From positions 1 through 64,000 of the forward strand of contig JAUCBJ010008061.1 of NCBI GenBank assembly GCA_032718475.1: 64,000 nt of DNA, read 5' to 3'. The stretch comes from Nemertoderma westbladi. Its lineage: Eukaryota; Animalia; Xenacoelomorpha. Within the stretch, counting starts at the first letter, position 1; every line of letters begins with the position of its first letter. The translations under genes were made by a program, and so were the position numbers. Under the pieces are notes generated by a model. That model did not search any database. It worked only from the letters and a program-made list of their open reading frames with translations, and was not told the DNA's origin. Positions 38,743-63,414 of the stretch are shown piece after piece.

Positions 38743-38758
38743 TCCACATCCACATTAA

Positions 38759-40189: not shown

Positions 40190-40417
40190 AAGGTGAAAAT
40201 TAAACATTATTATTTTTCAATCGATCTATCGGTAGTTAGGGAAAACTAACCTCGTTTGAATAAGCATGACTCTCACAGACTGACTGCGTGCCTAGCCGGT
40301 AGTAGCTGCGAGGCTGGCTGCGAGGCTGACTGCGAGGCTGGCAGCGATGCTGACTGTGTGACTAGTTGCGAGGCTGGCTGCGAGGCTGGCAGCGATGCTG
40401 GTCGCGAGGCTGGCTGC

Positions 40418-41598: not shown

Positions 41599-42171
41599 CT
41601 ACTGTACATCATTCATCACAGTTATTTCTTTCTGTTTATCACCTGTCTCAGTTAATCGTTTCGTTACATACCCTCCAATCCTTTTCGCTGAGCAGTAATT
41701 CAAGCAGCTATCACCATCTTTGTGAAAACTACATTTATCTTCTACAGTAGTTAATTTATCATGGAAGGGGCATGGAGTTAAATAATTGTAATATAGTCGA
41801 AATATTCCCAATTTGTTCATCGATTTTGGAGCGTAAACATCAAGTTGGGTATTTAATATTGCGGCTTTCATCAACCCAAATACATATATATTATATTTAT
41901 TTTTTAATTGTCTCTTCATGTACTTTTTAAAGTCATCTTGCGAAATGTCGCCGTAATCCCAAGGTAAATGTGAAGACATGTCGCGTAAATTGTTTACGTG
42001 GGCTTCATCTAATGCTGATAAGTTAATATCAGGAGGTCCTTTAATTAAAAACGTCTTTATATTAGTTTTACTGTATTTAGAATCGAATATAGCAAATTCT
42101 TTAAATACTACCGGATATTCCTTATTGTCTATCTTATAATATTGAAAATCGACAAAAATAATATTATCCAT
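41599..42171 (-). CDS. Maverick accessory protein, DEDD exonuclease-like
   Basis: IIFVDFQ..VFKEFAI N-terminus, LPWDYG, and a Cys/His tail (CSFH..YCS). Confidence 0.55.
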   Translation of the reverse strand: MDNIIFVDFQYYKIDNKEYPVVFKEFAIFDSKYSKTNIKTFLIKGPPDINLSALDEAHVNNLRDMSSHLPWDYGDISQDDFKKYMKRQLKNKYNIYVFGLMKAAILNTQLDVYAPKSMNKLGIFRLYYNYLTPCPFHDKLTTVEDKCSFHKDGDSCLNYCSAKRIGGYVTKRLTETGDKQKEITVMNDVQ

Positions 42172-42202
42172 TTTATCTGATAAACAAAAGTTAAATGATT
42201 AA

Positions 42203-42655
42203 TTACAACGTTTGTTGGTTTATTTTATAATAATTAACAAGCCATTTATATAATATTATTTCATTTATTTCCACATTATTTGTAAACGCTCTCATTGGAT
42301 AGTTTGTGTGAATTCGATTTACCAAGTAATAAAGACAGTATAACCCACATGTGGTCCTTCTAGGGTCTTGAAATTGTTTGCGGGTAGTACACCACCTTGC
42401 TGTATTTTTCTCAAGCCATTTTTCGATACATCTGTTTGGATATTTTGGTCCAAACGAATTAAATAATTCAGCATCATTATCTCGTATATATATAGCTACC
42501 CCTTGAACACCCGGCAGATGCTCTTTATCGGTATTTACTATAAACCCATAATCTCTCTGCTTATTATTATCTAATTTAGGTAATTTATTAGATGGAAATG
42601 CCCCCAAATAGTGACCACCCACTGCAAACATATCAAGGTCCTCTGTAGATAACAT
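42203..42655 (-). CDS. Adenain-like cysteine protease, probably inactive
   Basis: IVNTD..PG-VQG-VA (normally PGxHW), FNSFG (normally FDSFG), FQ..TTCGLYC. Confidence 0.88.
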   Translation of the reverse strand: MLSTEDLDMFAVGGHYLGAFPSNKLPKLDNNKQRDYGFIVNTDKEHLPGVQGVAIYIRDNDAELFNSFGPKYPNRCIEKWLEKNTARWCTTRKQFQDPRRTTCGLYCLYYLVNRIHTNYPMRAFTNNVEINEIILYKWLVNYYKINQQTL

Positions 42656-42657
42656 AC

Positions 42658-43832
42658 TTAATCGATACGTATTTCTTTCCTGCTATTTAAACTTAATGAT
42701 TGATCATAAATATTAAAAACGATTACATTTATGGTCTCAACCAACGGTTCGGCAAATCTTAATTTTAATTGTCCATTAGTATGTATCGATGGTTGAGGAT
42801 CTCTAACATAGCCGTCGGCGGTTAGGTCCCAGGAAATGAGTGGACAATTACCTAAGTAAGTTTCATGGTCTATATTATTACCTCCATAACCGTTAATATA
42901 TGTATTAATGTTCTTCATTAATTGTGTATACTCAAAAATGTATGTTCTATCTGTAAAATTAGGCTCGTATATTACACCACCTACTGGAAGACCGTCTACA
43001 ATCAGTTCCGCGCGTCTAAGGTTAAAATGTTCAAATTTCAAGGGATTGCTAGTTAATTCTCCCAAATATGCATTATTTGTTATAAAACCAATAATAACTA
43101 ATTTGGGTTTTTTACCATCAAATATGTTTGTTTGGGTGTAATTTGTGGTTTGAGCGGGAATAGTAAATGTAGTAACTTCTTTTTTTTGAAATTGATATTC
43201 AATATCGTAACTCTCTAAACCTTTTAGGTGACTGCTTTCTATTACGGGATTAACCTCCATTCTAGGGATTAGGATCTTTACTTCATCTAATTCTAACCGA
43301 AGATTTGTCACAGCGTTTGCGTTTGGAGTGATTTTAAAAATAAACGAATTTGATACTTTTCTAAAATGCATTCTTAAATCATACCCAGGTTGTATTATTT
43401 TACTTTCAGTATCAAAATCAATCGTCAATCCACTTACAAATTGCATTTGTTTACTAAAGGCATCGCCAATAGGATGCGCGCCAGGATTAATTTCATTTCC
43501 GTGTTCGGATAAAGGCTGATGAAAGCCCCCAGCCCCCAGTAGCCCATTTTTAGATTCGTATGTTGTAAATAGTAAATTGGATAAGTACGACTTGTAGAAA
43601 TAATGGTTATTGCTATTTTCAACCTGCTTCTCATTAAGGTCTATTTTAATATCACTCCACATAGTCCCAGAAGGGTAATTCAACATATAAATATGAGAGT
43701 TTTCAAGTCGTCTATCCCACCGTACAGTACATTTTGTAATTAATAACGCATCTTGCAGTTTCGTATAGAATTCATTGGATCTTGGTACAAGGAATGTGAC
43801 TTCCCTAGACTCGCTTCTGAGATTAGATACCG
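42658..43832 (-). CDS. Major capsid protein, 3' part
   Basis: Open through to the insertion site. PKLVIIGF..NAYLG..NPLKFEHFNL and GQLKLRFAEPL..INVIVF are typical of the Polinton MCP. Confidence 0.85.
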
Positions 43833-44380
43833 TGTTAGCTTATTCAATCCCGCTAACACCCCATAAAGTTATAAGCCGATAAGCAATATTAGGAGCCACG
43901 AGATTGGGTAATTAACCAACTTGTGCCATCCCAATAAGAATGGGAAGGAAGCACACAATAGAGGGTCAGGGGCCAAACCCCTAACCCAGAGAGAACAGGA
44001 GGAGTGAACGGGAACACTCCAAAGGGCGCCAACAAGGGTATCAACCAATCAGAGGGGGGAAAGGCATCGATTAGGTAGAGTAACAAGGCCAACCGTGCAA
44101 TATAGCCACTTGGCAGTAATATTACCAGTTCAGTTATCTCAGTGCAATACCGGTGCTAGTTAGGTTATTACATAGTTTTAGATAGGGAAGGACCGGGACT
44201 TTAGTTACCGTATCCCGCCTTCCGTATACGACAATATTATCTCATACTATATCTATATCTATATTCACATGTTATATTATATACGACAAACAACATCAGA
44301 ACTCGTTTCACTCGTTATACACGGCGGGGACGCGTGAACTAAAACCGGATAAACCGGGATCCCTCTTGGATCCCGTCACA

Positions 44381-44389
44381 GTAACTAAA
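44381..44389 (+). promoter_or_regulatory. Non-tRNA primer-binding site GTAACTAAA, complementary to the LTR 9-mer at 44200-44208
   Basis: Lies immediately after the 5' LTR, lacks TGG, and is the exact reverse complement of TTTAGTTAC. Confidence 0.7.
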
Positions 44390-44463
44390 CCCTTCGGCAG
44401 TAACCAAACCAGCTGCCGCCCTAGATAAACTTAACCACTAGCCACCGAAATCTGCAGAAGAGG

Positions 44464-47400
44464 ATGAGTCAGTCAGGTGACACGACACCGACGCGGACCC
44501 CGGACGAAGACCTAACGATCCGCGAGGCCGCAACCAGGCGATACAGGCCCACAACGCCGGACCCATCGGTAACGGGTCATCTGGCAGTTCAAGACGAGGG
44601 GAGCCTGGAACAAGAGGTCGAGCCAAGAGGAAGGGAGAGCGAGACGGGGGGAGACGGAGATGAGTCGACACGGGACGGAGATCGGCGCACCGATGTCGCC
44701 GGCCAGCTACAGGCCGAGGGCGACGAGCGGCCCACCGAAACGGCGATGGTGGGGCCGACGGTGCGACGCCGGACGCGTAGAGACGGAGGAGACATCGGTA
44801 CCGATGTCGCCGGCCAGCTACAGGCCGAGGGCGACGGACGGCCCACCGGAACGGCGACGGTGGAGCCGCCGGTACGACGTCGAACCCGGAGGGACGGAGG
44901 AGAGGTCGGCGACGAGGACGTCGGGGTTTCAGAGCGACTTCGACGGGCCTACAACGCGACCCGGAAGCTAATGAAGGACGCCAAGAAGAAAGGGGCGAAG
45001 GTAGACGAGGTGAGACTGAGAAAGCGACTAGGTGAGTCGGATAGACACTTTAATTACCTAATACGTTTTGGGCAGAGAGAACTAGCCGAGGGGAGAGCAA
45101 AAGGGGTTGCCGGCGAACTGTTTGAACTATGGGAGTGTGGGAGTATGGAACCTAGTGTAGCGCCAGTGTACATAGGGCCATACTTGGTCGATGCCCGGGG
45201 AGTAAAATTAGTGGGTTGGAGGGGACCCGAGGGGGGCGAATCCGAGGTTAACCCCGAGGATTCGGCCTCGTCGGTCGGAGAAAGTTCCGGGAAGCGGGGG
45301 AAAGTTAGTAGGTCGGGAAGGCGGAGGGGGTCCGTCGTAACCGATAAGTCTGCTACATCCTCCGCAAAAGAAAGAGTGGTGAGAGAGATAGGTGCCGCAT
45401 ACCGTCTCAACATGGTAGAACAAGGTCAGAGGGAAATGGAGGAACGGTTAGAGGAGGGGAGAGTGCGGTTAGAGAGGGAAGCGGCATTGATTAGAGAAAC
45501 CGGAGAGAGGGCCAAAAGGGCTTTGAGAAGCCTTAGGGAGTGTGAGGAAATAGAGGAAAAGGAGTGTAGGGAGCGTGAGGCAAGGGAGGACAGGGAACGC
45601 AAAGAGCGTGAGGCAGAACGCAAGGAACATGAGGCGAGGAGGGAAAAGTAACGCAAGGAACATGAGGCGAGAAGGGAAAAGGAACGCAAGGAGCGCGAGG
45701 TGAGACGAAGGGAGAGCGTTAGGAGTGTAGCGGAGTCGGCCGCCCGGGACACCCAGGAGTGTGAGAGGAGAATGGCAGAGGCTGAACGAGAGCACAAGGA
45801 ATTAAAGAGACGCCAGAGTGTGCTTGCGGAACATAAGATTAGACGGGCGCACGAGCTGCAACTGGTGCGAGCGTCGCCGTCTGAAAGCGGGGCCGGCTCG
45901 AGTATTTTTGGGGAGCCGGGGGCCGTAGATACATTTATTGATACCCCACTGACAGGGACCGCGCGACAGACCCAAAACTGGTGTGACCGTACGGGCGGGG
46001 GGGGGGGGGGGGGGGTAATGACAATAATGATACAGTAGACGTTGTTAATGATGATAGTACCGTATGGGACAACTCTAATCAAACCTTTATTGCAGGAAAT
46101 ACTTTGCCTAGTGGTAGTAATTTAAATTTAAATCAGAACAATCCTAATATTAATGTAGAAAATAATTCTAATATTAATGTAATTACGCAAAATAACTCAA
46201 ATAATCAAAATAATAACCCAAATTCGAACCTACAAAATAATTTAAATAACGCGATTACGCAGAATAATTCAAATAATTTAAATAATGATCCAAGCCCGAA
46301 TTTACAAAATAACTCAGATAGCGTAGTCGCGCAGAATAATACAAATGGTTTCGTTCCAAGCGAGCAAATCAATTCTGTTTCCAATATGGGTGCTATTAAC
46401 GTAAACACGTCGGACGTGTATAGCCAGGCAGATGAGGGCCTGGTAGGCCGCGTAGTTGGTAGGCAGGGAGTAGGGGGCCTGGTAGGCCACGTAGTTGGTA
46501 GACAGGGAGTAGAGGGCCTGGAAGGCCACGCAATAGCAGGAGGAGAAGCGGGGGTGAATAGACCCGACCGCGGTAGGGTTGATGTGTCGACTAGAGAGGT
46601 ATATAGTAGCGGGGTGAGAGGTAGCGAAGTAAAATGTAGCGAGTGGGGGGGGGGCTACAAGGGCCCCACAACAGAGAGTTAGCGGCGAGAGGGGGGGGGG
46701 GGGGGGGGGGGCAGAGAGTGTCCCACAGCCGTCAGCGGACAATGCGCGGGCCGAAATAGGTAAACCGCAACGACCGGCGACGGAAAGTAATAGGGGGATT
46801 GCGGATATCCCCAGCGGCGTGCGACCGAGCAGAGAGAGACGGGTTGACGTCGCGAGAGGGCGGACGAAGCGTCGAGCCCGATCAGAGGAAGGAAGAAGAA
46901 CAGTGGGGTTTAACCGGGAGGTCGACGAGAGATCTCACGAGCGGGAATATTCCACTGATAGGAGAAGAAAGGAAGACAGTAGTAGAAGTATCGCCGCGAA
47001 CGATAGAAGAGCGAGGACGGATAGCGAGCCGTCGATAGTCGAGATGAGAACGGAGAGTCAGTGGGGTCGGACTCCGGGAGATTGCCGTCGCCCCGGAGAG
47101 ATGCGACCCGGCGAGGCGCACTACGCGCCGAGAGAGGGGTACACAATGTATCGGTACGAAGATGAGAACAGTAGAGAGGGGGGTCGAAGAGAAACTTTCC
47201 GACGGGATATACCTACCGATCGAGAATACGGTAGCCGCGGGGAGGATTATTCGAGAAGAATAAACTTCAATCCCGAACAACACATGCAGACTGTAGGACA
47301 TACTGTAGGCCTTACTGCACATACCATAGGCCATACTGAGAGAGGCAATGTAGGCGATAGGATAGCGTGGACAACGGGATTAAACCTGGAAGTCGCGGAA

Positions 47401-50400
47401 TACATACCGGCGGGTAGGCCAGAAACTGATAGGCCTATACCGGTACCAGCACAGCAGTATGACTACAGCATGCAGGGACATAACATATACCCAGGGGAGG
47501 GGGGAATTATTGCGGATAGGTGCATGGGCCCCAACATATTAACATCAACCCCAGTACCAAACATACCGGTGGGGGGGGACAGGGTGACATTCCCCCATCA
47601 CAATATCAACAATATACCCCGATAGGAGCAAGAACAACGAGACCCTTGGATGAGAATAAGTCGTGTGACACAGAGATATGGAGGGGGCCGCTACCCCCGA
47701 TGACATACCCAAGTCAGAGAAGATCGAGAAATAGGACGGACGAACCGCACCAGACAGCGGAAACTATACAGCACCCGTCGAATCCATTGGAAGCGCAGGC
47801 GATGGGGATGGCCACGTTGATCGATGCGTTGAAAACGAGGATCGAGCTACCACCAGTGGAACCATTCAAATTCGATGGGAGTAGGCCGGAAGAATATCTA
47901 CAGTTTCGGCGCATGTATAGTAACGAAATACTAACAAAAAACTTGACGCAGGCGGAGTGCCTAAAGTATCTACAAGTGTACATGGGAGGCCCAGCATACG
48001 ACATCGTGAGGCAATATCAAGGAATAGAGGGCGGCTTCACGACAGCATGGCGGGCACTGGATAGGGAATACGGGCACCCGGCCAAGATCATCAGGCAGAC
48101 GCTGAGGGGCATAACATCGGGTGGCCTGCAGGATAATCCCGTTAGCATTAAGACGTTCGCTAACAAAGTCGAAAAGGCGCTAATCGTGCTGAAGACGCTA
48201 GACGCGCCGTACGAGCTCAATGCGTCCAACAACATCACCACGATAGCGCAGGCACTACCAAACTGGCTGCGCAACAAGTGGAGAAAAATCGCCTTCTCTA
48301 CTCGAGATAAGAAGGGTGCGGAACCGGGTTTAGAAGAAATGTCAAACTTCTTAAACTACGAGGCTGAACTAATAACTGACCCAGTCTATAGCGAAGACAG
48401 CCTGGGAAAGGGACCGAAGACAGACTACCATAGACCGAAACAAGAGCACAACACATCAAACGCATTACCGAGACTCAGGCAATCATTGCCATATGCAGCG
48501 ACGCAGGGGACTGCAAGTCCACAGCTAGCCGAGGATAAGACAACATCATGGAACGGACAGGGAAACAATAATAACACGAATAAACATAACCCCAGTACGT
48601 CCAATCGGCAAAACCCAAACAATAAGAATAGTAGGGACTTTGGTACGAACGCAACTGCGATACGCAATGCACTGTATAAAGAGGGCTACGACCCAAAGAG
48701 CAAATGTCAGTTACACGCAAATGCGCTTCATCAAACTATGAACTGCAGGTACTGGCAGGCGCTACCTAGGCAAGATCAGATAGATTATGCGTTCAGCAAT
48801 AAAATCTGCTCGCGATGTGTAATGAGTGGACATAGAGCAAGGGAGTGCAAGGAGAAGCCAATGAAATTTGGTCAAAGGAGAGGCCAAACGATGGCGACGA
48901 GCACAGTAGGGGCGAAGAAGAGAGGAACGGTGCTACTTGGAGTAGTACCAGTACGAGTGATCGGGGAAGGCAATCGATCAGTAACAACACTAATGCTGGT
49001 TGATAGTGGAGCTGCCTTCACATTAGTCGAGGAATGGGTGGCCGAGGAGATAGGATTGAGAACGAGGCCAAGCAGGATGGCGGTAACAACCATCTCTAGC
49101 AAAGATGAGATCCTGGAGATGAGAACAGGACGGTGCGCAATTGCAGCAGTGGCACCAGGATGCGACTATGGGGCAACCATCGACCCCATTCAAGTGATAG
49201 AGTCAATTAATATCAATGCCAGGCGACCAACCAACATCGAGGTTGAGCAGTACAAATTCCTGGACAACATTGACTTCTCAATCCCAGACGTGGACGTTAG
49301 GAAGGTATCCATCATAGTAGGTATGGACTGCCCAACAGCCCACGAAAGAATGCAAACGGTCTTCGGCGAAGACAAGCAGAGTGACCCGGTGGCCATATTA
49401 ACACCATTCGGGTGGACGCTGAGTGGTCCAATCAAGAGTAAGATACCATTTAGGATGTCGGAGACATCAGGATGCATGTTCGCGGGAACAATGCAGGAAA
49501 TGGGTGATGAGGGAGCAGAGGAGCAGCTTAAAAGACTGCTCAGACAGGATTTCGAGGGATTGAAAGAAACCGGGGTCGGGACCTCGGTGGAAGACAAGCA
49601 GGCTCTACAAAGCGTGGAGGAATCAATGACATGCGATGAGGGACGGTATACTATAGGAATGGTATGGAAACTACCGAAGATACCGCTGCCCGACAATAGG
49701 GGGATGGTACTCACGAGACTCCGCAAGCTGAAACAAACACTAAAACGGAGCCCCGAGAAGAATGAGTACATCCACAGGACGATTAAGAAGTACGTCGAGA
49801 AAGGATGGGCCGTGGAGTTACCGGTCGACGAGCCGAACACGGATAGAACATATTACCTGCCACTGCACGTGGCTTTAGATCCAAAGAAAGGTAAACTAAG
49901 GATGGTAGTCGACGCATCGGCAAAGACCGACGGAAAATGCTTAAACGATTACCTGTTAGAAGGCCCAAATATTTACAATTCGGGCATAGAGGTGTTACTT
50001 AGATTTCGAAATGGGAAACACGCCTTCACGTGTGACATAGAAGGCATGTTCAACCAAGTCCGTGTAACGGAAGAAGATAGCGACAGTCAACGCTTCTTAT
50101 GGTATAACGGCGAAGAAGAACCGCCGATAATACCAGCATATAAGATGATAGTACAGAACATGGGGGCCAAGTCGTCTTCATTTACGACGACTATGGCAGT
50201 GAGAGACACAGTAAAGGGGAAGGAAGATAGATACAGCAGTAGGGCCGTCGATATGATTCGACGCGGCTTCTACGTAGACGACGGAATGGAGTCTGGAAAT
50301 ACGGTTAAGGAGATACTGGATACAGGGCGCGAGGTTCGCGACATCCTAAAGGGATCCGGCTTTAACCTGACCAAATTCCAATCCAGTTCGGAAGAATTTA

Positions 50401-52915
50401 TCAAAGCCATAGAGGACAGGAAACCAGAATCGACCATGGATAATCCCACAACAGCCAAAGGGCAGGACATGGCGATTAAGAGAACAGAATCTCAGCAGAA
50501 GGCATTGGGAATCGTGTGGGATAGAAAGACAGACGAACTGAAGTATCAGCTGAGCCAGGAGGGCGCAGACATCCACACGAAGAGGGGCTATGTATCGTAT
50601 ATAGCAAGGATATACGATCCCCTAGGCCTAGCATCCCCATTATTAGTCACGGGGAAACAGATACTCAAGAGAGTATACAAATTGAAAGATGAGTGGGACG
50701 TAGAGGTACCAGAGGAAATCAAGAGACAGTGGAGCAAGTGGACAGGAAACTTGGAGAAGATGGGAACATACAACATGCCAAGGGTGTATTTCCCGGATGG
50801 GAACATGACGAATCTGGACCTACACATGTTCTCCGACGCGTCGTTGGAAGCGTACGGAGCGGCACTCTACTTAGTACAACGAGAGGGGGCTCATAAGCCA
50901 AGACTAGCCTTTAGCAAAGCAAAGTCAACGCCGCCAGATTCAGCATCAGTTCCCAAGTTAGAATTGACAGCTGCGAGACTAGGAGTAAGAGCCACAGCCT
51001 ACCTAGTGGATACTATTCCCAACATAGTGGAGACACACTACTGGACGGACTCCATGGTAGTGCTTGGTTGGCTACACAACGAAAGGACGAGATACCCGAT
51101 ATTCGTCGCGAATAGAGTGGTCGAAATAAGGGCGAGCACAGAACTGGAAAGGTGGCACTACTGCCCAACAGACGAGAACCCAGCACTGTCGAGGCACTGT
51201 CGAGGGGCGTGGAACGCCACACTTTCCGGAAGAAGGAAGTATTGTGGCAACATGGGCCACAATTCCTGAGCGATAGGGAGGCCTGGCCGCCGATGAGGAA
51301 GGTGGACCCCGGCTCGGAAGTAGTATCAGAAGGAGAAGAGGGAGATTCAGAGGGAGAAGAGATATACTCCCAGATGGTGAGGGAGATTAGGGACGTGCAA
51401 CCAGGAAAGGAACTGTGCGATAACCCGACGGATAAACTCCTCAGCTACAGTTCTAGTTGGTATAAGACCAAGAAACTAGTGGTGTACTGGAGAGCCTTCG
51501 GGAATTTCCTTGCGGGAGTTGGCAAGGACAAGAAGATCAGGACAACCATAGATCTGGAAGGAGCGGCCAAGGCAGTGATCCGCTATGAACAACGGAAGAA
51601 CTACGGCGACGAGGTGGAACGCGTCGGTAACCAACAGCACCTCCGACGGGACAGCGAGCTGATCACGCTGTCGCCACAACTCAATGACGACGGGATTCTA
51701 GTAATGAATTCTAGGGTGGGATACAACAACAGCATATTGGTACCACCGAAACCCATCATCATTCCTACAGGATCGCCAATAGTCCACCAGATTATATGGG
51801 ACTCCCACAAATCGATATTGCATGGGGGCACCAACCGAACCTTCACAGAGATAAGGAGGACCTATTGGGTCAAACAATTAAGGAAGAAGGTTAAAGCGGT
51901 AGTGGGGCAGTGCCAGACCTGCCGACGAGCGAAGAAGGAGCGAGCCATACAGGAGATGGCGCCACTACCGGCGAGTAGGGTAAGACAGCACGACCCGCCA
52001 TTTACACATTGCGGTGTGGACATGTTCGGGCCGATAAAGATCAAAGTGATGCGACACACGGAGAAACGCTACGGCATTATCTTCGTATGCAACAATACGC
52101 GGGCGGTAGGGATAGAACTCGCCCAAGATGCAACCGCATCAGCGTTCATTAACGCCTTAGAAAGATTTAGGGACCGCAAAGGTGGGATGATCGCAGTGAT
52201 ATACAGCGACAACGGCACCAACTTTGTGGGCGCAGAGAGTGAGATGGCAGAGGCCTTGGACATCTTGGAGGGGGAAGAAGTCAGGGCAGCCATGAGACGA
52301 CGACAAGTAAAGTGGGAGAGAAGGACGCCGTATGCACCACATACACTAGGATGCGTCGAGAGACTAGTGGGCAGTTCAAAGCGTCTAATGACGAAGCTAA
52401 TGAATACCCACATGGTCACTGAGGACGTCTTACGGACAGTACTTGCGAAGTGCGAGGGGATCATTAATAGCAGACCGCTATACCCGGAGAATGATGACCC
52501 TGAGTCACTAGACGTGCTAACGCCTAGCCATTTCCTAATGGAAAGGCCAGCGACCATCGATATGCGGGGTGTAGACCCAGATGACATACACTCCCGCCAA
52601 AGTTGGAAAGTCGCTAAAGCAATAAGCGCAGAGTATTGGAGGAGGTGGGTCGAGGAATACCTACCCACACTCCATAAGCGAAGCAAGTGGAGGAAGTCAA
52701 ACAGGGAGTTAAGAGAGGGAGATCTCGTAATCGTTACGGATGATACTATCATCAACAACCAATGGCGGTTGGCGAGAGTTGTAGGCACCTACTCCGACGA
52801 GGACGGAAGAGTCCGATCGGTAGAAGTGCGGATAGGTGGAAAGATAGGTGCGAAGGACAGAAAAACCTACAGGAGAGCTGTAGGTAAATGCTGTCTATTA
52901 GAAGGGGCACCTTAG
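44464..52915 (+). CDS. Bel/Pao gag-pol polyprotein (one stop and several frameshifts in this sequence)
   Basis: Capsid IELPPVEPFKFDG, CSRCVMSGHRAREC knuckle, protease LVDSGA, RT FYVDDG, RNase H FSDAS/YWTDS, integrase H..H..CQTC with GVDMFG/SDNGTN/VERLVG, and WVEEYLPTL. The PR-RT-RH-IN order and motifs are Bel/Pao. Confidence 0.95.
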
Positions 52916-53029
52916 CAGAGTTAGAGAAAAGTTTAGTCGTCCAAGTTTTGGACTGAGGGGGGTGGGATTGAGGGCGAGACGCCCTTCCCACAAACAAAAT
53001 AATAAAAATAAAAAAAATAGTACATGGTA

Positions 53030-53490
53030 GGTACGCAGTTAGTAGGCAGAGACTACGGGAGTTAGTTAGTAAGAAGGTACGTAGTACCTAGTTAGTTAGT
53101 TAGTTAGAAGGTACGTAGTACCGCCAGTCAGAGAGTTAGTTAGAGGGTACGTAGTACCTAGTTAGTTAGTTAGTTAGTTAGAAGGTACGTAGTACCGCCA
53201 GTCAGAGAGTTAGTTAGAGGGTACGTAAGTACCGTTAGTTAGTTAGTTAGGAGGTACGTAAGTACCACCAGTTAGAGAGAGTTAGAGGGTACGTAGTACC
53301 GATAGTTAGTTAGAGAGTTAGAGGGTACGTAGTACCGATAGTTAGTTAGAGAGTTAGAGGGTACGTAGTACCAATAGTTAGTTAGAGAGTTAGAGGGTAC
53401 ATAGTACCGATAGTCAGTTAGAGAGTTAGAGGGTACGTAGTACCGATAGTTAGTTAGAGAGTTAGAGGGTACGTAAGTACCGTTAGTTAG
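53030..53490 (+). repeat. Tandem array of GGTACGTAGTACC mini-hairpins with TTAG/GAGA spacers
   Basis: About 13 units of 30-40 bp downstream of pol. Confidence 0.9.
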
Positions 53491-53978
53491 AAGAGAGGGA
53501 GTAAGAGGTAAAAAAGGGGATATAGATATAGGTATTAGTTAGCAATTAGTAGAGAGAGGGGGGCATATGAATACAGCTGGATAAATCGTGTGGCCACACG
53601 ACGCATACTGCTGTACTGCATAGGCCCACAGAGTAGGCCAGAATGTGGATTAGAGAATAGAATAATCCATAGGCAGTAGTAAGTAGTGGGACAGTAGAAT
53701 CAAAGTAAATGGATAAATAAATAAAATAGGGCTGAAAATTGTAAAATAGTGGCAACACAAGGGAAGTTATTCTAGAACATAATAAAAGTAACGGACAGAA
53801 ATTGTAAATTACGCTCATTTACTAGCTTCAAAATTAATTAGGAATAATTTAGGTTAAAAGGCGCAGTTAAGTAGAAATAGGCCATTATCGAACTGTACAG
53901 AACATCCTAGATACATCACTCATCTGTATTGCGCCTTGGTAAGGCACCACCTTGCAGGTGAGCGAGTGAACGTTCGGA

Positions 53979-55247
53979 ATGGCGAGTAAGTTGATCAGAA
54001 AGAGAAATGCGGAGTCAGGAGGAAAGGAGATACTGGTGGATTTCACCGAGAGGCATCCGGAAGAGAAGACGAGAGGATACTACAAGAGGTTGGAAAGGGG
54101 TCACGCGGTACGAGCGCTGCAGGATCACTTCCGGGAGGCGCACGAACAGCGGCTGGTCGGGACCTACGGGACCCCGTCGCTGGACAACGCGATCTTCCAA
54201 CACTTCCACTACGTGGTGAAAGGGGACGAGGCGAAGTTCGGGATTCCGAAATACCCGAGGGAATCACCGAGGAAGGACTGGAAGAGATTCATAGAGTCCA
54301 TCAACAGAGGAGGATATATGATCCTAGATGACGAGGGAACCGTGGAAGACGAGGCGGGTTCGAGACGAGGAACGGCAGGGTCGGCCAGGACCATACTCCT
54401 ACATTTGGCCGCGCCAAATGGGGACATCTTCTTATTCGACCTAGGGACGTATGGGAAGAAGGACGGGCCGAAATTAGACCGATTACCGAAAGCGGTACAA
54501 GTCTTAGTAAGAGAAAAGTCGACGACGAAAGTGGGATTGGCGATTCGCGAGGACGCGGAGAGGATCATCGGTCCGGACGCCACCAACCTCCTGGATATGC
54601 AGAAAGTCTTTATGGCTATGACGGCACCGGATGGATTGGGGGTAGTCGGAAACACAGGCCAATGCGGGGCGGTGGCGATGGGCCAATTATTGGGGCTCGT
54701 ATGCCACAAACCGATGGACTGGGGGAAGTTTAGGGAAGAATACGGAGCAGAACTAGCGAACTCGCTAAAGTGGGGAGCGAGACCGGGAAAGCAGGAGGTA
54801 TATCAGTTCCGCAGGGGAGCGATAAAGGTATATCAGAAGCGATATATCCTGCAGGAGGACTGGATGATGATAAGTTTGCTTAACTTATTCATGACCGTGA
54901 TTATCGAGAGGGAACCAGGGGCATTTCTGTTATCGGGATCACCCCTAAGATACAGGAGAGCCTTTAAAGTGGCCTTTGACGGTCTGGTAGACCACCCGGG
55001 GCTGAAGGGCGAGTCGGTGTATTACAACAGCCGACATCTGGTAGACGGGGAGACAGACACACCATATCAGAGATGGGAGCAGCTAGAGACGGATAGACGA
55101 GAAGCAAAGCGACTGGAAGAAGTCGCTAGACGGGAGAGGATAGAAGCAGAAGAGAGGGAAGAGGAGGCCAGGACACAGAGTTACGGCTTCGAGGAACAGG
55201 CGGGCCTAGATGAACTTCATTGGACTTCGTCAGGGAGTTCGGGGTAG
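53979..55247 (+). CDS. Extra ORF3, part 1: WRN/RNase D-like DEDDy 3'-5' exonuclease domain
   Basis: ExoI ILDDEG, LLHLAAPNGDIFLFDL, LPKAVQVLV..TKVGLAIREDAERI (ExoII), LLDMQ, MGQLLGLVCHK, QKRYILQE (ExoIII with E in place of D). Confidence 0.75.
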   Translation: MASKLIRKRNAESGGKEILVDFTERHPEEKTRGYYKRLERGHAVRALQDHFREAHEQRLVGTYGTPSLDNAIFQHFHYVVKGDEAKFGIPKYPRESPRKDWKRFIESINRGGYMILDDEGTVEDEAGSRRGTAGSARTILLHLAAPNGDIFLFDLGTYGKKDGPKLDRLPKAVQVLVREKSTTKVGLAIREDAERIIGPDATNLLDMQKVFMAMTAPDGLGVVGNTGQCGAVAMGQLLGLVCHKPMDWGKFREEYGAELANSLKWGARPGKQEVYQFRRGAIKVYQKRYILQEDWMMISLLNLFMTVIIEREPGAFLLSGSPLRYRRAFKVAFDGLVDHPGLKGESVYYNSRHLVDGETDTPYQRWEQLETDRREAKRLEEVARRERIEAEEREEEARTQSYGFEEQAGLDELHWTSSGSSG

Positions 55248-55598
55248 TCTCTAGGGCAAGAATTGGGATGGACAGTGGGATCGCCGAAACAGTCGACGTC
55301 GGGGTTGCGAACGATGCCCATACCAGCGGGCGCCGAGGGCGACCAACCGCCAAGGAAGTTAAGGGAGCTAGAGTGATGGAGAGCTACGGGCGAGAGCCAA
55401 GGCGGGATGGGACATAGTGGATCCATCGGGATACCGGGATTGGAGACACTACCAGAAGAGGAGGACGACGACGACGAGTTCGGAGAGATGCCGCCCATCG
55501 AGAGGATAGGCCACTCGGACACGGACTGGGTTGGCGGAAGGGTGGTGACGGCCAGTGGGGCGAGGGCCTTCTGGAACAGATCCGGCAAGCGGACCTAG

Positions 55599-56294
55599 GT
55601 GCACGAGGAGCCGGCGATTGATTTCGCGGGGAGCACCATCAGGTTGGGCGAGCAACCGGGGACGGCACCACGGATAGTATTCGGGGAGACGATGCCCGAG
55701 AGGGGCGGAGAGATCGACGTAAACAGGGAGACCAACGTAGAGAAGTTCGCCTACCAGCGACTCCACAGACCGCGGAGATCGCTTGGGACGAAAGACGAGG
55801 TGGGACGGGAGACATTGGTACTCGGCTGCGACTACTGTGGGAGACAGACCCATCGGGAAAGTAGCTGTCTATGCCGGTTCCAACAGGGAACCTTTTGTCT
55901 CTACTGCAGAGAACCAAGCCACAGGATGGGGGCGTGTCCACGGTTGCATAACCGATGTCCAAAGTGCCACTTTCGGGGACACTACGGACGCGAGTGCGAC
56001 TGGATGAACGACGAGGAGAAGTTCACAAGATTCGAGGAGTGGGCCGACGTCGGGGCCATGACGCGCCAGCGCATGAAGGCCCAGGAGTTCAAGTGGGGTT
56101 TCTTCCTTATCAATCAGGAGACTCACATGGAAATCATAAAGCGGAGGCTACCGTTTACCTACCAAGAGGTAGCAACGGCGGCGTCGTACGCTGGAGTGAT
56201 GAACACGCAAAGGTATCTGGACAGGTGGACGCCAGAGAACCGAAGGGAGTTTAGGGATTTCTTGGCGGAGCACGTACCAAAGGCAATAAAATGA
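55599..56294 (+). CDS. Extra ORF3, part 2: three CCHC zinc knuckles, same frame as part 1
   Basis: CDYCGRQTHRESSC, CLYCREPSHRMGAC and CPKCHFRGHYGREC are all CX2CX4HX4C. Confidence 0.8.
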   Translation: MHEEPAIDFAGSTIRLGEQPGTAPRIVFGETMPERGGEIDVNRETNVEKFAYQRLHRPRRSLGTKDEVGRETLVLGCDYCGRQTHRESSCLCRFQQGTFCLYCREPSHRMGACPRLHNRCPKCHFRGHYGRECDWMNDEEKFTRFEEWADVGAMTRQRMKAQEFKWGFFLINQETHMEIIKRRLPFTYQEVATAASYAGVMNTQRYLDRWTPENRREFRDFLAEHVPKAIK

Positions 56295-57259
56295 TCCTAT
56301 GGGACGCCACTAGAGGGAGACAACCGGTTGAGGTTGAGGGACGGAATAATAGTGCGGAGTGCGGAGAGAGTGCGGACGCGATTCTAGTGTGGGGGGGGGG
56401 GGAGAATAAGAGGCTGAGTAAGGGACGAGGAGGTCCGAGTGTGAGAGAGTTAGGGTGAGAGTGAAGAAGAGATAGGGCGGAAGTGTTGGGGAAACAAAAG
56501 TTGCGTGGGAGGTGAGCGCGATCGGCCTGACATGAGACGCCAGGCACACAGGGTAGCGTTATCATACCCATAGGGGGCGGCCTGGAAAGCCGACTCCGAG
56601 AGAAAAGAATTCCACCCCACACTCGATACTAGATCGGGATCCAGCGGGATTGTAGCGCACTTTTGGTTGATGCTATCTTCTTACCGGGAAGATAGCATGG
56701 GGGGAGTGTTAGCTTATTCAATCCCGCTAACACCCCATAAAGTTATAAGCCGATAAGCAATATTGGGAGCCACGAGATTGGGTAATTAACCAACTCATGC
56801 CATCCCAATAAGAATGGGAAGGAAGCACACAATAGAGGGTCAGGGGCCAAACCCCTAACCCAGAGAGAACAGGAGGAGTGAACGGGAACACTCCAAAGGC
56901 CGCCAACAAGGGTATCAACCAATCAGAGGGGGGAAAGGCATCGATTAGGTAGAGTAACAAGGCCAACCGTGCAATATAGCCACTTGGCAGTAATATTACC
57001 AGTTCAGTTATCTCAGTGCAATACCGGTGCTAGTTAGGTTATTACATAGTTTTAGATAGGGAAGGACCGGGACTTTAGTTACCGTATCCCGCCTTCCGTA
57101 TACGACAATATTATCTCATACTATATCTATATCTATATTCACATGTTATATTATATACGACAAACAACATCAGAACTCGTTTCACTCTTTATACACGGCG
57201 GGGACGCGTGAACTAAAACCGGATAAACCGGGATCCCTCTTGGATCCCGTCACATACCG

Positions 57260-57877: not shown

Positions 57878-58727
57878 TTTATTTTTTTAAAGTGTAAGGT
57901 AATAGAAGTTGTGCCGTATTCAAAATTCAAATCTTTTCATTCTTTGTCTGTTATTTCAATATGAATGTATGTTATCTTATATGATTTTTTACAGGGATAT
58001 AATGAATTGTATCCTTGGCAAATTCTTTATTTATTACACTACCATATTTCACGTCATCAGGTATCGCCACGCGACGAAGTAAAGCTAAACCAAAATCATT
58101 AATATATTCATTTTCAATTATATTAGTAGTCACATACATGTTCAACTTAGGTTCTGGAATAGAATTGGGTGGTTGAGGGCATAAAAATACCATCTGGTAA
58201 GCTTTTTCTTCATTTCCGATAATTTTTATTAAATAACCCTTTATATTATTTTTCGTCTTCAAAATAATTTTAAAATTTGGATTTAAATTCGCACCGAGAT
58301 TATTTTCAGTAATTCCAAAATAATAGGCTAATTGTTGACCTATAAATAACTTTCGTACAGTTTTCCCTAAAATAAATTGCAACCTATTTTGCTGAGTATT
58401 TTCAACTATTTGTAATTTATCTTTCAATGCCCCAGTGTTAAAATAATCTATAATGTCATTGATACTGTAGAACAAGCCGGATGGAAGTGTATCCTCAAAA
58501 TTTTTTTTCCCTTTTTTTAATAAAATAACATTCTCTACATTGTTATACATGGATGGTAACGTGGCTAAGTAAAATATACTTTTTATACCTACCACCCAGT
58601 TTTCGTTTGGGTTTATAGGTAAGGCACCATGGAAATTGATCTGATAATTACTACCAGTATTACGGGGAAAATCAATTGGACACGAGTTACTTGGTAGCCT
58701 AACATAGAACTCATCCATCACCATCAC
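57878..58727 (-). pseudogene. Minor capsid (penton-like) protein, copy 2, with a broken C-terminus
   Basis: FYVRLPSNS..FPRNTGSNY..WVVGI, YVTTNIIE..LLRRV. The tail IEITDKE*KDLNFEYGTTSITLHFK is in another frame and contains a stop. Confidence 0.8.
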
Positions 58728-59580
58728 GTATTAACTTAAGTGTTATAACAGTGCGACCACCGTTGAAATTAATTAATTCACCTTGACCGTCACGTAAAGT
58801 AATTAAGATTGTTTTTAGTTTTTTATTCAACAACGGGTAATAGCAAATGCTCTCGTATTCGTGATTAATATATTTTCGATTTAATTGTGTTAAAGGACAG
58901 GTTCTTAAGAGCGGAGCTAAAGCATCACCAACAAATGAGCTCTTAATAATATCTGTATATATGAAGATTGTATCTTTATTACGAGTAATATTTGTGGGAT
59001 TTGGAAAATCTAAAATCCCAATTTCCGAAATTTTTGGTCCACTATAATTTAAAATTAATATCGGCTGTTCTATATTGCTTAATTCATCCACTGTAGTGGT
59101 ACTGTATATATCCCAATTCGGAATACCTGGATGATTCTGATCCAATAACTGTTTTAAGCCTAGAATTTGTATTAAATCACCACGTAGACTTAATTGTATT
59201 TTTTTCAACTTTTTAGGAAATTTAAATTTAATTCTAGAATTATTTGTATTAAAAATGAATTCGAAATCTCTATATTTCGCTTCAGAATTAAACAGTTTAT
59301 TTATATCATCAATAATGACTTGAATAGAGCTATGCATACCAGGAAATAAACTGTATAATTTGGCATCTTTTGCATCTACCCCGATTGACAGCGAGATTTG
59401 AGTTTGCAGAGTAATATTACTGTACGTTGCTTGGTATTGAATCTCGGCGAGTCCAATTTTAGCGTTTGAACCAATATATAATTCTTCAGCTAAATCAACA
59501 GTAAACTCGCTAGGGTTATTATTGGGGTATGTGTTTAATGAGCTATCTGAAACTAGAGTGATATATGTATCTACAGCCAT
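58711..59580 (-). CDS. Minor capsid (penton-like) protein, copy 1
   Basis: YITLVSDSSLNTYPNNNPSEFTVDL..IGLAEI, FIYTDII..VGD..APLLR, ITLRDGQGELINFNGG. Confidence 0.85.
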   Translation of the reverse strand: MAVDTYITLVSDSSLNTYPNNNPSEFTVDLAEELYIGSNAKIGLAEIQYQATYSNITLQTQISLSIGVDAKDAKLYSLFPGMHSSIQVIIDDINKLFNSEAKYRDFEFIFNTNNSRIKFKFPKKLKKIQLSLRGDLIQILGLKQLLDQNHPGIPNWDIYSTTTVDELSNIEQPILILNYSGPKISEIGILDFPNPTNITRNKDTIFIYTDIIKSSFVGDALAPLLRTCPLTQLNRKYINHEYESICYYPLLNKKLKTILITLRDGQGELINFNGGRTVITLKLIRDGDG

Positions 59581-59592
59581 TATTATTATTAT

Positions 59593-60015
59593 TTAAGCTC
59601 TCTCTGCTTGACTCCTTTGTACATACAGTATGGTACAATGTTAAACTATAGACATCTGTGACCACGTTCATTGTTTCTACAGTATATGCGAGAGATCAAT
59701 ATTTAAAGCGAATGAACTATAGATATTAGACTTACAACATAGTAATATCATTCGAGTTAATATTGATTAATTACGATCATATGTGACCATTATTCGCTTA
59801 AGCTCTCTCTACTTGACTCCTTTGTACATACAGTACGGTATAATGTTAAATTATTAGACATCTGTGACCACGTTCGTTGCCGCTTCTACAGTATATGCGA
59901 GGGATCAATATTTTACTGGCTTTATTTAAAGCGAATGAACTATAGATATTAGACTTACAGTATAGTATAGTAATATCATTCGAGTTAATATTGATTAATT
60001 ACAGTCATATGTGAC
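59593..60015. repeat. ~200-bp tandem duplication between integrase and penton genes
   Basis: Units begin TTAAGCTCTCTCT.CTTGACTCC at ~59593 and ~59799. Confidence 0.85.
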
Positions 60016-60048
60016 TAAAATGAATTAATATACAGTATAAACCTAAAC

Positions 60049-61137
60049 TTATTGAATATGCTGTACCCACGATTGTTTCTTGGATCCAATGAATCGGACT
60101 AAATATTCTTTTTTCCCATTGCGCACACGTTCTTTAAGTTTGCCAATATTTTTGTCAATCGGAAGATAAATATTACTATTCGGGTGGACCTTTTGGAGTT
60201 CGTATGAATAAAATAGCCCATTTATTATAGCACCTGCGCTGTCCTTAATATCGAACATTACCGCTGGTACTCTATCCAATCTAACCCGATGAATAATAAA
60301 TAATTCACGTGTCCATTGTTCTCGATAGCCTTTAGCAAAAGCAGTATGCGCGATAGATAATTGTACTGTATCTCCAACTTTAAATTTTATTTTCTTGTGA
60401 TTAATCTGTCTATATTTCCCATATAATCTATTCATTAATTCAGTTTCATTAAATTTATTAACTTCAATGGGCGTCATTTGTATTGTCCTATGATATGACC
60501 TATTATAAGCCAAGATAAGCTTCGGTAAAATTTTTATCCAAACATTATTTCCCCGTTGCGTGAAAATTCTGAACATCTTTGTTTTTAATGTTCTATTGAA
60601 TCTCTCGACAATAGCCGCCTTATTCACAGAGTACATTACGTAATACTGTATACCAATAGTATCTAAATATTTCCTTACAGATTTATTTAGAAACTCAGAA
60701 CCTTGATCAGTCGCGATTCTGTTTTGTTTACCTTTCTGGAATATTTTTTGCAATATACTAATAATTTCAATACCTGTTTTTGTCTTCATACCATAGGCAA
60801 AAGCAAGCCGGCTAAAGGCATCAATACATGTTAATATATAGTTATAATTATTATTTTGTGATTTATATTGCTGCATATCCACCAGATCTATCATATATAT
60901 ATCTTTTAACCCTCCCGTAAATATTTTAGATGTTGGATAACGATGTCTACGTGGTGCGTTAAGGGAGTATGTCTTTTGCCCACTCAACCATTTCTGAGCT
61001 TGAGCTAGTTTGATGTTTGCGGCTTTTGCTAATTTTGCGATACTTGCAAAACCCGCAGGGGATGAAGGATCTAAATAAATTCTTAACAGTTTTTTGTCTA
61101 AGCTTCGGCTTAAAATCGGGCTCATCTTGCGTGGCAT
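60049..61137 (-). CDS. Maverick retroviral-type integrase with a truncated chromo-like tail
   Basis: YLDPSSPAGF, IDLVDM..CIDAFSR, TDQGSEF, VERFNRTLK, YN..YHRTI, EYLVRFIG. Confidence 0.95.
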   Translation of the reverse strand: MPRKMSPILSRSLDKKLLRIYLDPSSPAGFASIAKLAKAANIKLAQAQKWLSGQKTYSLNAPRRHRYPTSKIFTGGLKDIYMIDLVDMQQYKSQNNNYNYILTCIDAFSRLAFAYGMKTKTGIEIISILQKIFQKGKQNRIATDQGSEFLNKSVRKYLDTIGIQYYVMYSVNKAAIVERFNRTLKTKMFRIFTQRGNNVWIKILPKLILAYNRSYHRTIQMTPIEVNKFNETELMNRLYGKYRQINHKKIKFKVGDTVQLSIAHTAFAKGYREQWTRELFIIHRVRLDRVPAVMFDIKDSAGAIINGLFYSYELQKVHPNSNIYLPIDKNIGKLKERVRNGKKEYLVRFIGSKKQSWVQHIQ

Positions 61138-61358
61138 CTTTTCGACAACCGCAAGTAATATGTATATTCAAATCTCTTATAAAGGGCATCACCGTAAAAA
61201 CAGCTGAAATTTTTTTATTTTCTTTGAAGTTGATGTTTTGAAGGGTTTTCTTTTTGTAGTATTTACTCTAGGTATATCTTGAGGTTTTAAATCAGTAGCT
61301 AACAGTTTACTCGATACTAAATATAATTTTCTAAATGTTACACCCGTTTTAACCATTA

Positions 61359-61742
61359 TTACCGTCCGCGGTTAATTTTTTTCGCAATAGCCGCTCCAGC
61401 GGCGGCGGCACCAGCACTCGCGGCGAGTTTCGCACCAATGCTGAGTAAGGGTATTAGAAACGGTAGTATGCCTCCAGATTGATTGCTTAACTTTTTTCTG
61501 TAACTTGATATATTTTTTGTTTTGCGGTTGAGTGATTTCAATAACTTTTTATAGCGGCGAATATTTCTAAATGAATGAGGGGTCAATTTTACGTTACCTT
61601 TTAGAATATTTAATGCAGTATTTACAATGAACCGTATTAATTCGTTACTCGCGGTATGGTTAATAAAATAAGTTCTTTGTTGAGGGGTAGCGCTGCGTAG
61701 AAATTCCAGTTCGTTATGATATTTCTGCACAAGTCTATTCAT
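61359..61742 (-). CDS. Small basic Maverick virion protein with QSGG cleavage site and hydrophobic helix
   Basis: LNILKGNVKL..NQSGGILPFLIPLLS. Confidence 0.7.
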   Translation of the reverse strand: MNRLVQKYHNELEFLRSATPQQRTYFINHTASNELIRFIVNTALNILKGNVKLTPHSFRNIRRYKKLLKSLNRKTKNISSYRKKLSNQSGGILPFLIPLLSIGAKLAASAGAAAAGAAIAKKINRGR

Positions 61743-61775
61743 TCTTGCAACATTATTGAAAATTGTTACAAAATA

Positions 61776-62459
61776 TTAATTATTATTATTATTATTATTA
61801 TTATTTTCGCTACGTTTATAGTCAATGTAATTTTTAATGTAACAATTATGATTACGAAATATATCCGATCTAAATCTTAAATGTTCGGGTGTTTCCTGTC
61901 GTAAATCAATTAAGAAATGTGAAAATGGTTCAATAGTCGCATCTTGATAGGAATCTACTAAAAATTTGGTCTGCCCTGGTAACATCTGCTTCGCGAAATT
62001 TAAAACCGATAAACTGTCTCGCGGATTTTTCATTAATACTAAGGTATGGCTATTAATTGATCTTGTGCGGTTATGCTTCCCACCGTAAAACATGTTTTGC
62101 GTTATAAAACAAATAAATATATTGGAATGATGAGCTACCTTAGTAAACAATACAGTTAAAGCTGTACTGGACTCAGTTTCTGTTAATAAATCATCTATAA
62201 TTAATAAATCTCGACTATTCACTAAACTATCTATATTTTCAGGCAAACCTTTGTAAAGGTGTGTAATACCAGGAATAGTCGGGGGATTGCTCCCGTAACA
62301 ATACAATACTCGCAAGGGGGGTTCGTTGAAACAACCATTCTTGTGTTTAATTAAATTGCTGACAAATGTAGACTTTCCGGAACCAGACGGGCCAGAAATT
62401 ATCATACTCGTTCCCATTTGAAAGTTTAAATTATATGGACCTGAATTAAAGTCAGCCAT
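61776..62459 (-). CDS. A32/FtsK-like genome packaging ATPase
   Basis: Walker A GPSGSGKS, Walker B LLIIDD, ITQN, RSINS..LMKNPRD. Confidence 0.93.
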   Translation of the reverse strand: MADFNSGPYNLNFQMGTSMIISGPSGSGKSTFVSNLIKHKNGCFNEPPLRVLYCYGSNPPTIPGITHLYKGLPENIDSLVNSRDLLIIDDLLTETESSTALTVLFTKVAHHSNIFICFITQNMFYGGKHNRTRSINSHTLVLMKNPRDSLSVLNFAKQMLPGQTKFLVDSYQDATIEPFSHFLIDLRQETPEHLRFRSDIFRNHNCYIKNYIDYKRSENNNNNNNNN

Positions 62460-62645
62460 TTATTATTATTATTAAGATATATCAACAATACAATATAATA
62501 TAATATAATATAAATATCAATAAACCATCACCATTACTATGTATATATGTAACAATTCACAAAAAACAGCATTTTACAACAAAAAGTATGTACAACTGTA
62601 GTATTAGTATATTTATCATGGTAATCTTTCGTTCTATTTATTACC

Positions 62646-63347
62646 TTATTTGAAAAGATTGTGTAATCGTATACCTGCAATCAACAGACATTGTTTTCGA
62701 TTTAAATAATGTCCATACCAAGTGAGATAGCGGTGACATCGTATAAATTCGTTATACTTCTTAGTTTGACATTTACGTTCTATACCACGTCCGTAGCATT
62801 TAGTACTGGAAATATGACTTAGAGTATGCTCAGTCAAAGTGCGAATTACTCTCATACACAAATCATTGCAAAGAATACCTTCATCAAGTTTCAAATAATA
62901 CTTTTTTGGTTTTATACCTCTTGAAGATGATTCATCTTTATATGTCTTAAAGTAAATATCAAAACTACGTAAATTCTTATTTAATTTTACTGTGATATTT
63001 TTATGTTCTTCATCAAACAACCAAGGTACCATAAAGCCGCCTTTTTTCACTATATATCGATAAAAAATATTCTGTGATATTGTAAATAACTCGTTAGGTT
63101 CGTTACTTTTTCCTGAAATGTAAATAGAATTCCGCAGCTCTTTCCAATAATATGGATTATATAACTTGTTTACTCTGCAAAGTGTCTGTACTCTACAAAT
63201 TGGACAAATTTTAGTACAATCATTAATTTCAACATGTTGATCAATACATGTCACGCAAGTTCCATGTTTATTAACACATATGTAACAATCAAGATGTTTT
63301 AAATTAGAATAACAAATACTACAATTTGTGTTTATTAATATATCCAT
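62646..63347 (-). CDS. C3HC4 RING finger protein
   Basis: CSIC..CVNKHGTCVTC..CPICR at the N-terminus. Confidence 0.8.
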   Translation of the reverse strand: MDILINTNCSICYSNLKHLDCYICVNKHGTCVTCIDQHVEINDCTKICPICRVQTLCRVNKLYNPYYWKELRNSIYISGKSNEPNELFTISQNIFYRYIVKKGGFMVPWLFDEEHKNITVKLNKNLRSFDIYFKTYKDESSSRGIKPKKYYLKLDEGILCNDLCMRVIRTLTEHTLSHISSTKCYGRGIERKCQTKKYNEFIRCHRYLTWYGHYLNRKQCLLIAGIRLHNLFK

Positions 63348-63414
63348 TTTTCTTAAATAACCAAACCAAAATCGTTAAAATGTTGATAAAATATTTATAA
63401 TATAGCTGAAAGAG

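Follow-up and report, generated by a model that had tools for sequence, protein, structure and literature searches.

A third open reading frame (ORF3) found in a Bel/Pao long terminal repeat (LTR) retrotransposon of Nemertoderma westbladi (Xenacoelomorpha) appears to be an accessory gene for a predicted DEDDy-fold 3′-5′ RNA exonuclease with three CCHC zinc knuckles, which might counter silencing by working against host RNAs; we assign a probability of about 0.4 to this reading. The element spans 43833-57254 (13.4 kb) of the window, i.e., the stretch of 64,000 nucleotides that was analyzed (GenBank assembly GCA_032718475.1, contig JAUCBJ010008061.1, positions 1 to 64,000 of the forward strand). 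ORF3 lies on the forward strand at 53979-56294, between pol and the polypurine tract, and therefore occupies the env position.

ORF3 as a Putatively Conserved Gene Interrupted in the Present Copy

ORF3 comprises 771 codons and a final stop, reproducing the preliminary description of this DNA, which had joined three ORFs of one frame into ∼770 codons broken by three stops. These in-frame stops (TAG at 55245-55247, TGA at 55374-55376, and TAG at 55596-55598) all fall within 118 codons, in a region (55050-55800) made up of a charged helix and an acidic/Gly-rich linker. Within 53979-56294, the ORF3 frame contains four stops, the final one included, versus 42 and 14 in the other two frames.

For comparison across the family, contigs from four public runs (X1, X2, X5, and X6) were placed on 53500-56750. 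All 30 bins of this region were covered, with mixed likeness, by contigs of X1 (4,604) and X2 (7,967), and ORF3 is therefore regarded as a regular part of a multicopy family. Stop 1 occurred in none of the contigs covering it (25 from X1, 39 from X2, and one each from X5 and X6), nor did stop 2 (18 from X1, 23 from X2, and one from X5); the two stops are either private to the present copy or assembly errors. The preliminary description had raised the prospect that the stops would disappear in a family consensus, and this came true for stops 1 and 2, both of which are among the 40 variant rows, chosen by support from 498 places, while stop 3 is outside them. Third codon positions account for 26 of the 37 ORF3 places in these rows (p = 5e-6), and synonymous changes for 25 of the 35 non-stop ones, compared with 33% expected from transitions alone. 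A dN/dS below 1 had likewise been named as something to look for, and the rough nonsynonymous/synonymous (N/S) ratio is 0.12, a value that comes from a support-selected subset and is not a proper dN/dS. The 12 indels listed, of 34, include seven in the spacer upstream of the ATG, and those inside ORF3 sit at its last codons only. Because stops 1 and 2 are not common to the family and 25/35 variants are synonymous, ORF3 would be a conserved accessory gene, under apparent purifying selection, that has decayed in the present copy, and intact copies probably encode one continuous protein. The damage to this copy extends beyond ORF3, as its gag-side frames are interrupted and its integrase is out of frame with the reverse transcriptase (RT). 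A remnant of ORF3 also exists in a deleted sister element (18026-18232, reverse strand), which preserves codons 318-387 (70 codons) with 70% identity and two stops.

The features of an env fusion glycoprotein, i.e., a signal peptide and a C-terminal transmembrane (TM) helix, were not found in ORF3. Hydropathy and N-terminal charge, used here instead of a dedicated predictor, gave no sign of either a signal peptide or a TM helix, just as the preliminary description had it: hydropathy over 19 residues peaks at 1.32 within the ExoIII helix (residues 290-309), and the protein has a basic N-terminus. That description had also pointed to a possible splice acceptor at ∼53958. The candidate acceptor CCTTGCAG (53950-53957, forward) ends 21 nt upstream of the ATG and is readable as a donor too (CAG/GTGAG); the pyrimidine share upstream of it is 0.60, a value that none of the 511 YAG sites between the LTRs exceeds and that puts the site in joint first place, on a purine-rich strand. 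In X6, a run tentatively taken to be RNA and represented by seven contigs, no listed joint fell at this acceptor, a result that carries no information on expression.

A Predicted DEDDy Domain and Three Zinc Knuckles

The N-terminal domain of ORF3 (54276-54905, approximately residues 100-309) very probably has the DEDDy (PF01612) fold, since remote tests for it agree with one another, although each is modest. In the ESM Atlas, PF01612 was assigned to 24 of 30 matches (score 0.93, 168 shared features), with the family present on 34% of the members of the PF01612 cluster and six unnamed fungal clusters ranking above it. Alignment by hhalign with 55 bacterial PF01612 domains covered residues 100-212 with P = 0.003, against 0.39 for the integrase control. 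When ORF3 was aligned with 49 DEDDy domains, the six invariant columns (D117, E119, D192, W265, Q286, and Y289) were kept in order, so that the ExoI DxE (D117/E119) and the ExoII Asp (D192) are present in the right order and context. The ExoIII motif (Q286/Y289/E293) reads YxxxE instead of YxxxD, with Y289 kept and Glu293 occupying the Asp column in register with the family motif; this reading is from the present copy only. A hidden Markov model (HMM) built from 58 of 60 fetched DEDDy domains gave ORF3 7.8 bits, whereas the best of 500 shuffles scored 2.7 and the best of 196 natural decoys 1.6. A fold model guided by the DEDDy alignment reached a predicted local distance difference test score (pLDDT) of 69.5, and its Foldseek matches, circular by this construction, included EXD2, TbRND, Egalitarian, and Nibbler. 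With the PF01612 domains of WRN, EXD2, Nibbler (Mut-7), EXD1, and Egalitarian, ORF3 shares the motif order, the spacing, the ExoII "KVG...D," and the ExoIII "QxxY," whereas it differs from members of the family in falling below every curated cutoff, that of PF01612 included, in its identity of only ∼12-21% to bacterial members, and in the ExoIII Glu. The WRN/RNase D-like domain and the YxxxE motif that had been recognized by eye are thus both supported.

The C-terminal part contains three exact CX2CX4HX4C zinc knuckles (55827-55997, forward), which start at residues 617, 640, and 660 (55827, 55896, and 55956) and are separated by spacers of 9 and 6 residues. When the C-terminal ORF was shuffled 100,000 times, not once did as many as two knuckles arise, placing the earlier observation of the array beyond chance. 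In the Atlas, this region has zf-CCHC, AIR2-like, and DUF8363 clusters as neighbors, each with a score <0.9, and they are considered a lead only. No useful match was obtained for the N-terminal ORF in a set of 5.8 billion proteins, for the knuckle region among the longer proteins of that set, or for ORF3 among phage records, viral contigs, and metagenome contigs. The sole match among 1.84 billion representatives, P0002, was rejected as a tandem-repeat protein in which an 18-residue stretch matched 14 times.

The Host Element and Its Self-Complementary Primer-Binding Site

The element is bounded by LTRs of 548 nt, TG...CA, at 43833-44380 and 56707-57254, and the 5-bp target-site duplication TACCG is found directly 5′ of it (43828-43832) and after the 3′ LTR (57255-57259). 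As the LTRs differ at just five places (99.1% alike) and the TACCG flanks are present, the insertion is young. Downstream of the 5′ LTR, all on the forward strand, come the N-terminal gag-side frames (44425-47625), with one stop and frame changes at long G runs; a region encoding the gag core (DUF1759), aspartyl protease, RT, and the Pao RNase H (Peptidase_A17) at 47520-51269; the integrase with DUF5641 at 51116-52915, in a frame different from that of the RT ORF; a tandem repeat spacer of ∼36-nt units at about 53060-53500; and, beyond ORF3, a polypurine tract (56699-56706) that adjoins the 3′ LTR. The Pfam matches (DUF1759, aspartyl protease, RT, Peptidase_A17 with E = 3e-40, Integrase_H2C2, rve, and DUF5641) identify the element as Bel/Pao, in accordance with the earlier assignment, and the order of protease, RT, RNase H, and integrase with Pao-type domains, the paired LTRs, the target-site duplication, and the polypurine tract are all those of that group. 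The element appears to have no close relative in the databases searched: for the integrase, identity does not exceed 41% in the 120 listed of 666 matches, a search of viral contigs with the integrase gave no useful match, and a quick tree with 48 rows and without named Bel/Pao references puts the RT on a long branch (2.03). The LTR starts with a short inverted repeat, TGTTAGC...GCTAACA (43833-43858), which the sister and solo LTRs have retained, and contains no AATAAA, a motif found at 53716, 53781, and 56285.

The primer-binding site (PBS) at 44381-44389 adjoins the CA of the 5′ LTR and begins with GTAACTAAA, not TGG, thereby differing from the tRNA-type site of the ICTV profile. It is the exact complement (9/9 pairs) of a 9-mer inside the LTR (44200-44208), the candidate self-primer, and a PBS-complementary 9-mer occurred in 0.12% of 20,000 shuffled LTRs. 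The sister element differs at 5 of the 9 letters of this 9-mer and keeps exact pairing with its own PBS; its duplex energy was reached by 30 of 300 shuffles, versus 2 of 300 for the ORF3-bearing element. The self-type PBS noticed in the preliminary description is thus real. The LTR 9-mer is ∼70 nt downstream of an initiator-like TCAGTT, and it may be internal to the R region, not at the transcript start as in Tf1. Both in 44200-44208 and in the sister LTR (21946-22515, reverse strand), GAC...CGT flanks the 9-mer, which may be located in a hairpin loop and lies ∼70-100 nt past TATA- or initiator-like motifs, and a solo LTR (323-865, reverse strand) has a third variant. A splice-made primer was considered for the ORF3-bearing element and rejected, as the best junction gives 8 nt versus 9 unspliced.

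The preliminary description had offered a possible link of ORF3 and the self-complementary PBS as one system, and their co-occurrence was examined among 80 Bel/Pao loci from metagenomes (749 ORFs), many of which are short, 19 of 64 checked having at least 1,500 nt past pol. None of the 80 matched ORF3 or RNase D. LTR ends were examined in 29 loci and were firm in three (L036, L047, and L076), while what looked like ends in L004, L009, L040, and L082 proved to be contig ends or mismatches and were set aside. L047 has a tRNA-type primer site. L036, which encodes an intact 2045-aa gag-pol with ∼160 nt from pol to LTR, has an 11-nt PBS match in the 3′ LTR (0/300 shuffles), and its 5′ LTR copy is 88% alike with an intron-like end at the place of the match. 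In L076, the match is 12 nt long and spans a GT-AG junction of the LTR (0/40 shuffles), which follows the interrupted pol by 163 nt. Since these two loci have self-type sites without room for a third gene, a PBS of this kind can, in Bel/Pao at large, do without ORF3, and the proposed link fails for the group as a whole, with the reservation that these relatives are distant from the ORF3-bearing element (RT ∼36% identical). Self-type sites and the exonuclease gene are separable, as the sites occur in Bel/Pao loci without the gene. A self-type PBS without ORF3 is also seen in the deleted sister elements, which provide no test of the link because their RT and integrase are absent too. As a separate observation, the LTRs of both L076 (2079-2794) and L036 (95-340 and 6895-6950) contain a splice junction to which the PBS corresponds, and the 3′ LTR of L036 resembles the joined form and its 5′ LTR the intron-bearing form.

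Surroundings in the Window

The deleted sister elements, at 15720-29200 (reverse strand) and 6268-9400 (forward strand), are partly in tandem and share LTRs; they retain gag/protease parts, repeat spacers, the polypurine tract, and the self-type PBS and are devoid of RT, integrase, and nearly all of ORF3. The ORF3-bearing element is inserted in a Polinton/Maverick-like region (37846-43839 and 57972-63374) that contains an integrase (rve, 60049-61167), a weakly matched A32-like ATPase (61776-62459), and capsid-like and polymerase-like ORFs judged by eye. The polymerase-like ORF at 38759-40189 (forward) has a match to PF00352, the family of the TATA-binding protein, in its C-terminal part (E = 5e-7), and it possibly represents two genes read as one frame. 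Within 29489-33526 are what we take, by look, to be a HECT-domain gene (30706-31866, forward) and an integrase-like gene (32468-33526, reverse). Arrays of a 21-nt tandem repeat (221-2178) flank the solo LTR and recur in opposite orientation, which suggests the end of another mobile element.

Discussion

We tentatively propose that the ORF3 protein would be made from a spliced RNA via the acceptor at 53957 and would shorten or sequester host PIWI-interacting RNAs (piRNAs), small interfering RNAs (siRNAs), or their precursors. By analogy with TbRND, the knuckles might grip single-stranded RNA and pass its 3′ end to a two-metal site. The loss of host small RNAs would help the family stay active, while self-priming would be carried out by the RNase H of the element itself, without ORF3. 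Given that ORF3 is conserved in its own family yet was matched in none of the other sampled Bel/Pao loci, a conflict with the host is the role that fits best, and the absence of ORF3 from all of those 80 loci argues against a core role in replication. A more specific version, in which the element encodes a small RNA-destroying DEDDy exonuclease that is fused to Air/ZCCHC-like knuckles and, as a counter-defense in the env position, trims piRNA or siRNA of the host, is somewhat doubtful. A loose viral precedent is the arenavirus nucleoprotein exonuclease, which reportedly digests double-stranded RNA (PMC3429428) and, by the title of PMC9815661, has a minor role only.

ORF3 might instead be a pseudo-nuclease adaptor that uses the DEDDy fold for binding and, together with the knuckles, escorts element RNA to particles or the germ line. 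Egalitarian retains its DEDDy fold for binding rather than cutting, as is stated for EXD1 and Maelstrom, and Egalitarian chains are among the Foldseek matches of ORF3, but the model behind those matches is alignment-biased. The replacement of the ExoIII Asp by Glu and the nature of knuckles as RNA-binding modules would suit an adaptor as well, and the passages of PMC5408684 on DEDD derivatives note inactive ones that retain RNA binding. This explanation is nevertheless unlikely, given that D117, E119, D192, and Y289 are all retained and that the fourth position still holds a carboxylate. The same Asp-to-Glu change in the Klenow fragment is reported to leave much activity. Quite unlikely, too, is a housekeeping nuclease of the element cycle, which would polish element RNA or cDNA at the 3′ end or clear RNase H fragments in the particle. 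Processing of the 3′ ends of element RNAs is suggested for the rotifer DEDDy ORF3s in the part of PMC5408684 that deals with them, and such knuckles occur in Gag and could tether the protein to packaged RNA; however, the lack of ORF3 in the 80 loci means that Bel/Pao replicates without it, and neither the knuckle spacing nor the Atlas neighbors indicate the Gag of the element.

That ORF3 trims the 3′ end of the element RNA to the 9-bp duplex with the PBS, and thus makes the primer, is the explanation to which we give the least credence. The exact pairing of PBS and LTR 9-mer, maintained in the sister despite the changed letters, would accommodate it, and, if the 9-mer is internal to R, a 3′ trim is at least possible there. 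The self-type sites of L036 and L076, distant relatives as they are, nonetheless occur with only ∼160 nt between pol and LTR, and the Tf1 primer, according to the portion of PMC7175516 on this point, is made by RNase H cleavage, an activity for which the Bel/Pao element has its own domain. A trimming role confined to this lineage would likewise be very unlikely. For ORF3, an anti-silencing role would be more likely than primer making. Hardly more credible is the idea that there are two genes, or no exonuclease, in which case an N-terminal ORF with some unknown fold and an independent knuckle ORF would share one frame by chance. Neither part has a curated match, three stops crowd within 118 codons, linker contigs have gaps, and stop 3 is outside the listed places; against this, stops 1 and 2 are in no covering contig, and the family named beforehand in the preliminary description came back from Atlas as well as from hhalign.

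Several observations count against the reading that we prefer, an active exonuclease directed at host RNAs. ORF3 found no match in Pfam, NCBIfam, or PHROGs, none among PDB sequences, TbRND included, and no true homolog among the 1.84 billion representatives. The hhalign probability is just 10%; three sub-HMMs give 2.7, -1.5, and 0.5 bits, and one of them gave the reversed protein 7.5; ORF3 matches 8 of 14 conserved columns, a number that 4 of 104 shuffles also reached, as did 1 of 99 natural decoys. The single-sequence fold model has a pLDDT of 32, and the matches of the alignment-guided model are circular because it was built on the DEDDy alignment. With Glu for Asp at ExoIII, the enzyme may be weak or dead. 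On the side of conservation, the stop comparison covers stops 1 and 2 with stop 3 outside the listed rows, the variant counts rest on 37 of 498 places selected by the tool according to support, and some linker contigs have gaps of unknown phase.

A close precedent is found in bdelloid rotifers, whose LTR retrotransposons Juno and Vesta and whose Athena/Terminon elements also have an RNase D-like DEDDy ORF3 in the env position without a TM helix, as described in the sections of Rodriguez et al. 2017 (PMC5408684) devoted to them; the preliminary description had pointed to such ORFs. According to the same sections, no function was shown for them, and, as in the present ORF3, one catalytic Asp is changed to Glu, giving DEED in the rotifer proteins versus DEDE, at ExoIII, here. 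The carrier group is different, however, and instead of three CCHC knuckles a Cys-His-Cys motif is described there for Vesta2 and Vesta5, the comparison being one of descriptions only. The predicted domain design, on the other hand, resembles that of Trypanosoma brucei RNase D (TbRND; PDB 7C42 and 7C45), in which, in the part of PMC7797062 concerned, a DEDDy domain is followed by four tandem CCHC fingers that increase RNA binding and cleavage. TbRND is, by that account, a cellular mitochondrial enzyme with a 28-residue linker that acts on guide RNA U-tails, whereas ORF3 has three knuckles ∼300 residues past the domain and no sequence match with TbRND; the same design was probably reached separately.

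The element shares with Belpaoviridae (PMC8742986) the Gag-protease-RT-RNase H-integrase order, DUF1759, Peptidase_A17, DUF5641, TG...CA LTRs, and a 5-bp target-site duplication. It differs from that profile in its length (13.4 kb versus 4.2-10 kb) and in having a third gene that is not env-like and a self-complementary PBS, as the profile gives env-like third genes and tRNA priming only. The primer site is more like those of the self-priming elements Tf1 and Tj1 of the Tf1/sushi group, where, in the parts of PMC4600332 and PMC7175516 on priming, the PBS likewise adjoins the LTR and pairs with a short LTR segment; Tf1, however, is Ty3/gypsy and uses the first 11 nt of its RNA and RNase H cleavage, in contrast with the 9-nt pairing of the present Bel/Pao element. 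Neither a DEDDy or DEDDy-CCHC gene nor self-priming was found to be reported for Bel/Pao in a search outside of which lay most subscription journals and Repbase, and a Bel/Pao exonuclease is not mentioned in the available portions of PMC3118150, PMC6338049, PMC6431247, PMC5718144, PMC13524379, and PMC3985635. As far as that search extended, Bel/Pao as a carrier group of a DEDDy third gene and the DEDDy-CCHC fusion in a retroelement have not been found in print and would be new here. Exonuclease-like extra ORFs may occur in the nematode Cer and springtail Daidara elements as well. The presence of a conserved DEDDy third gene in a deep Bel/Pao lineage, apparently fused to RNA-gripping knuckles, argues that such genes work for the element that carries them. 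ORF3 offers a compact, testable candidate for the way in which animal retrotransposons might counter small-RNA silencing.

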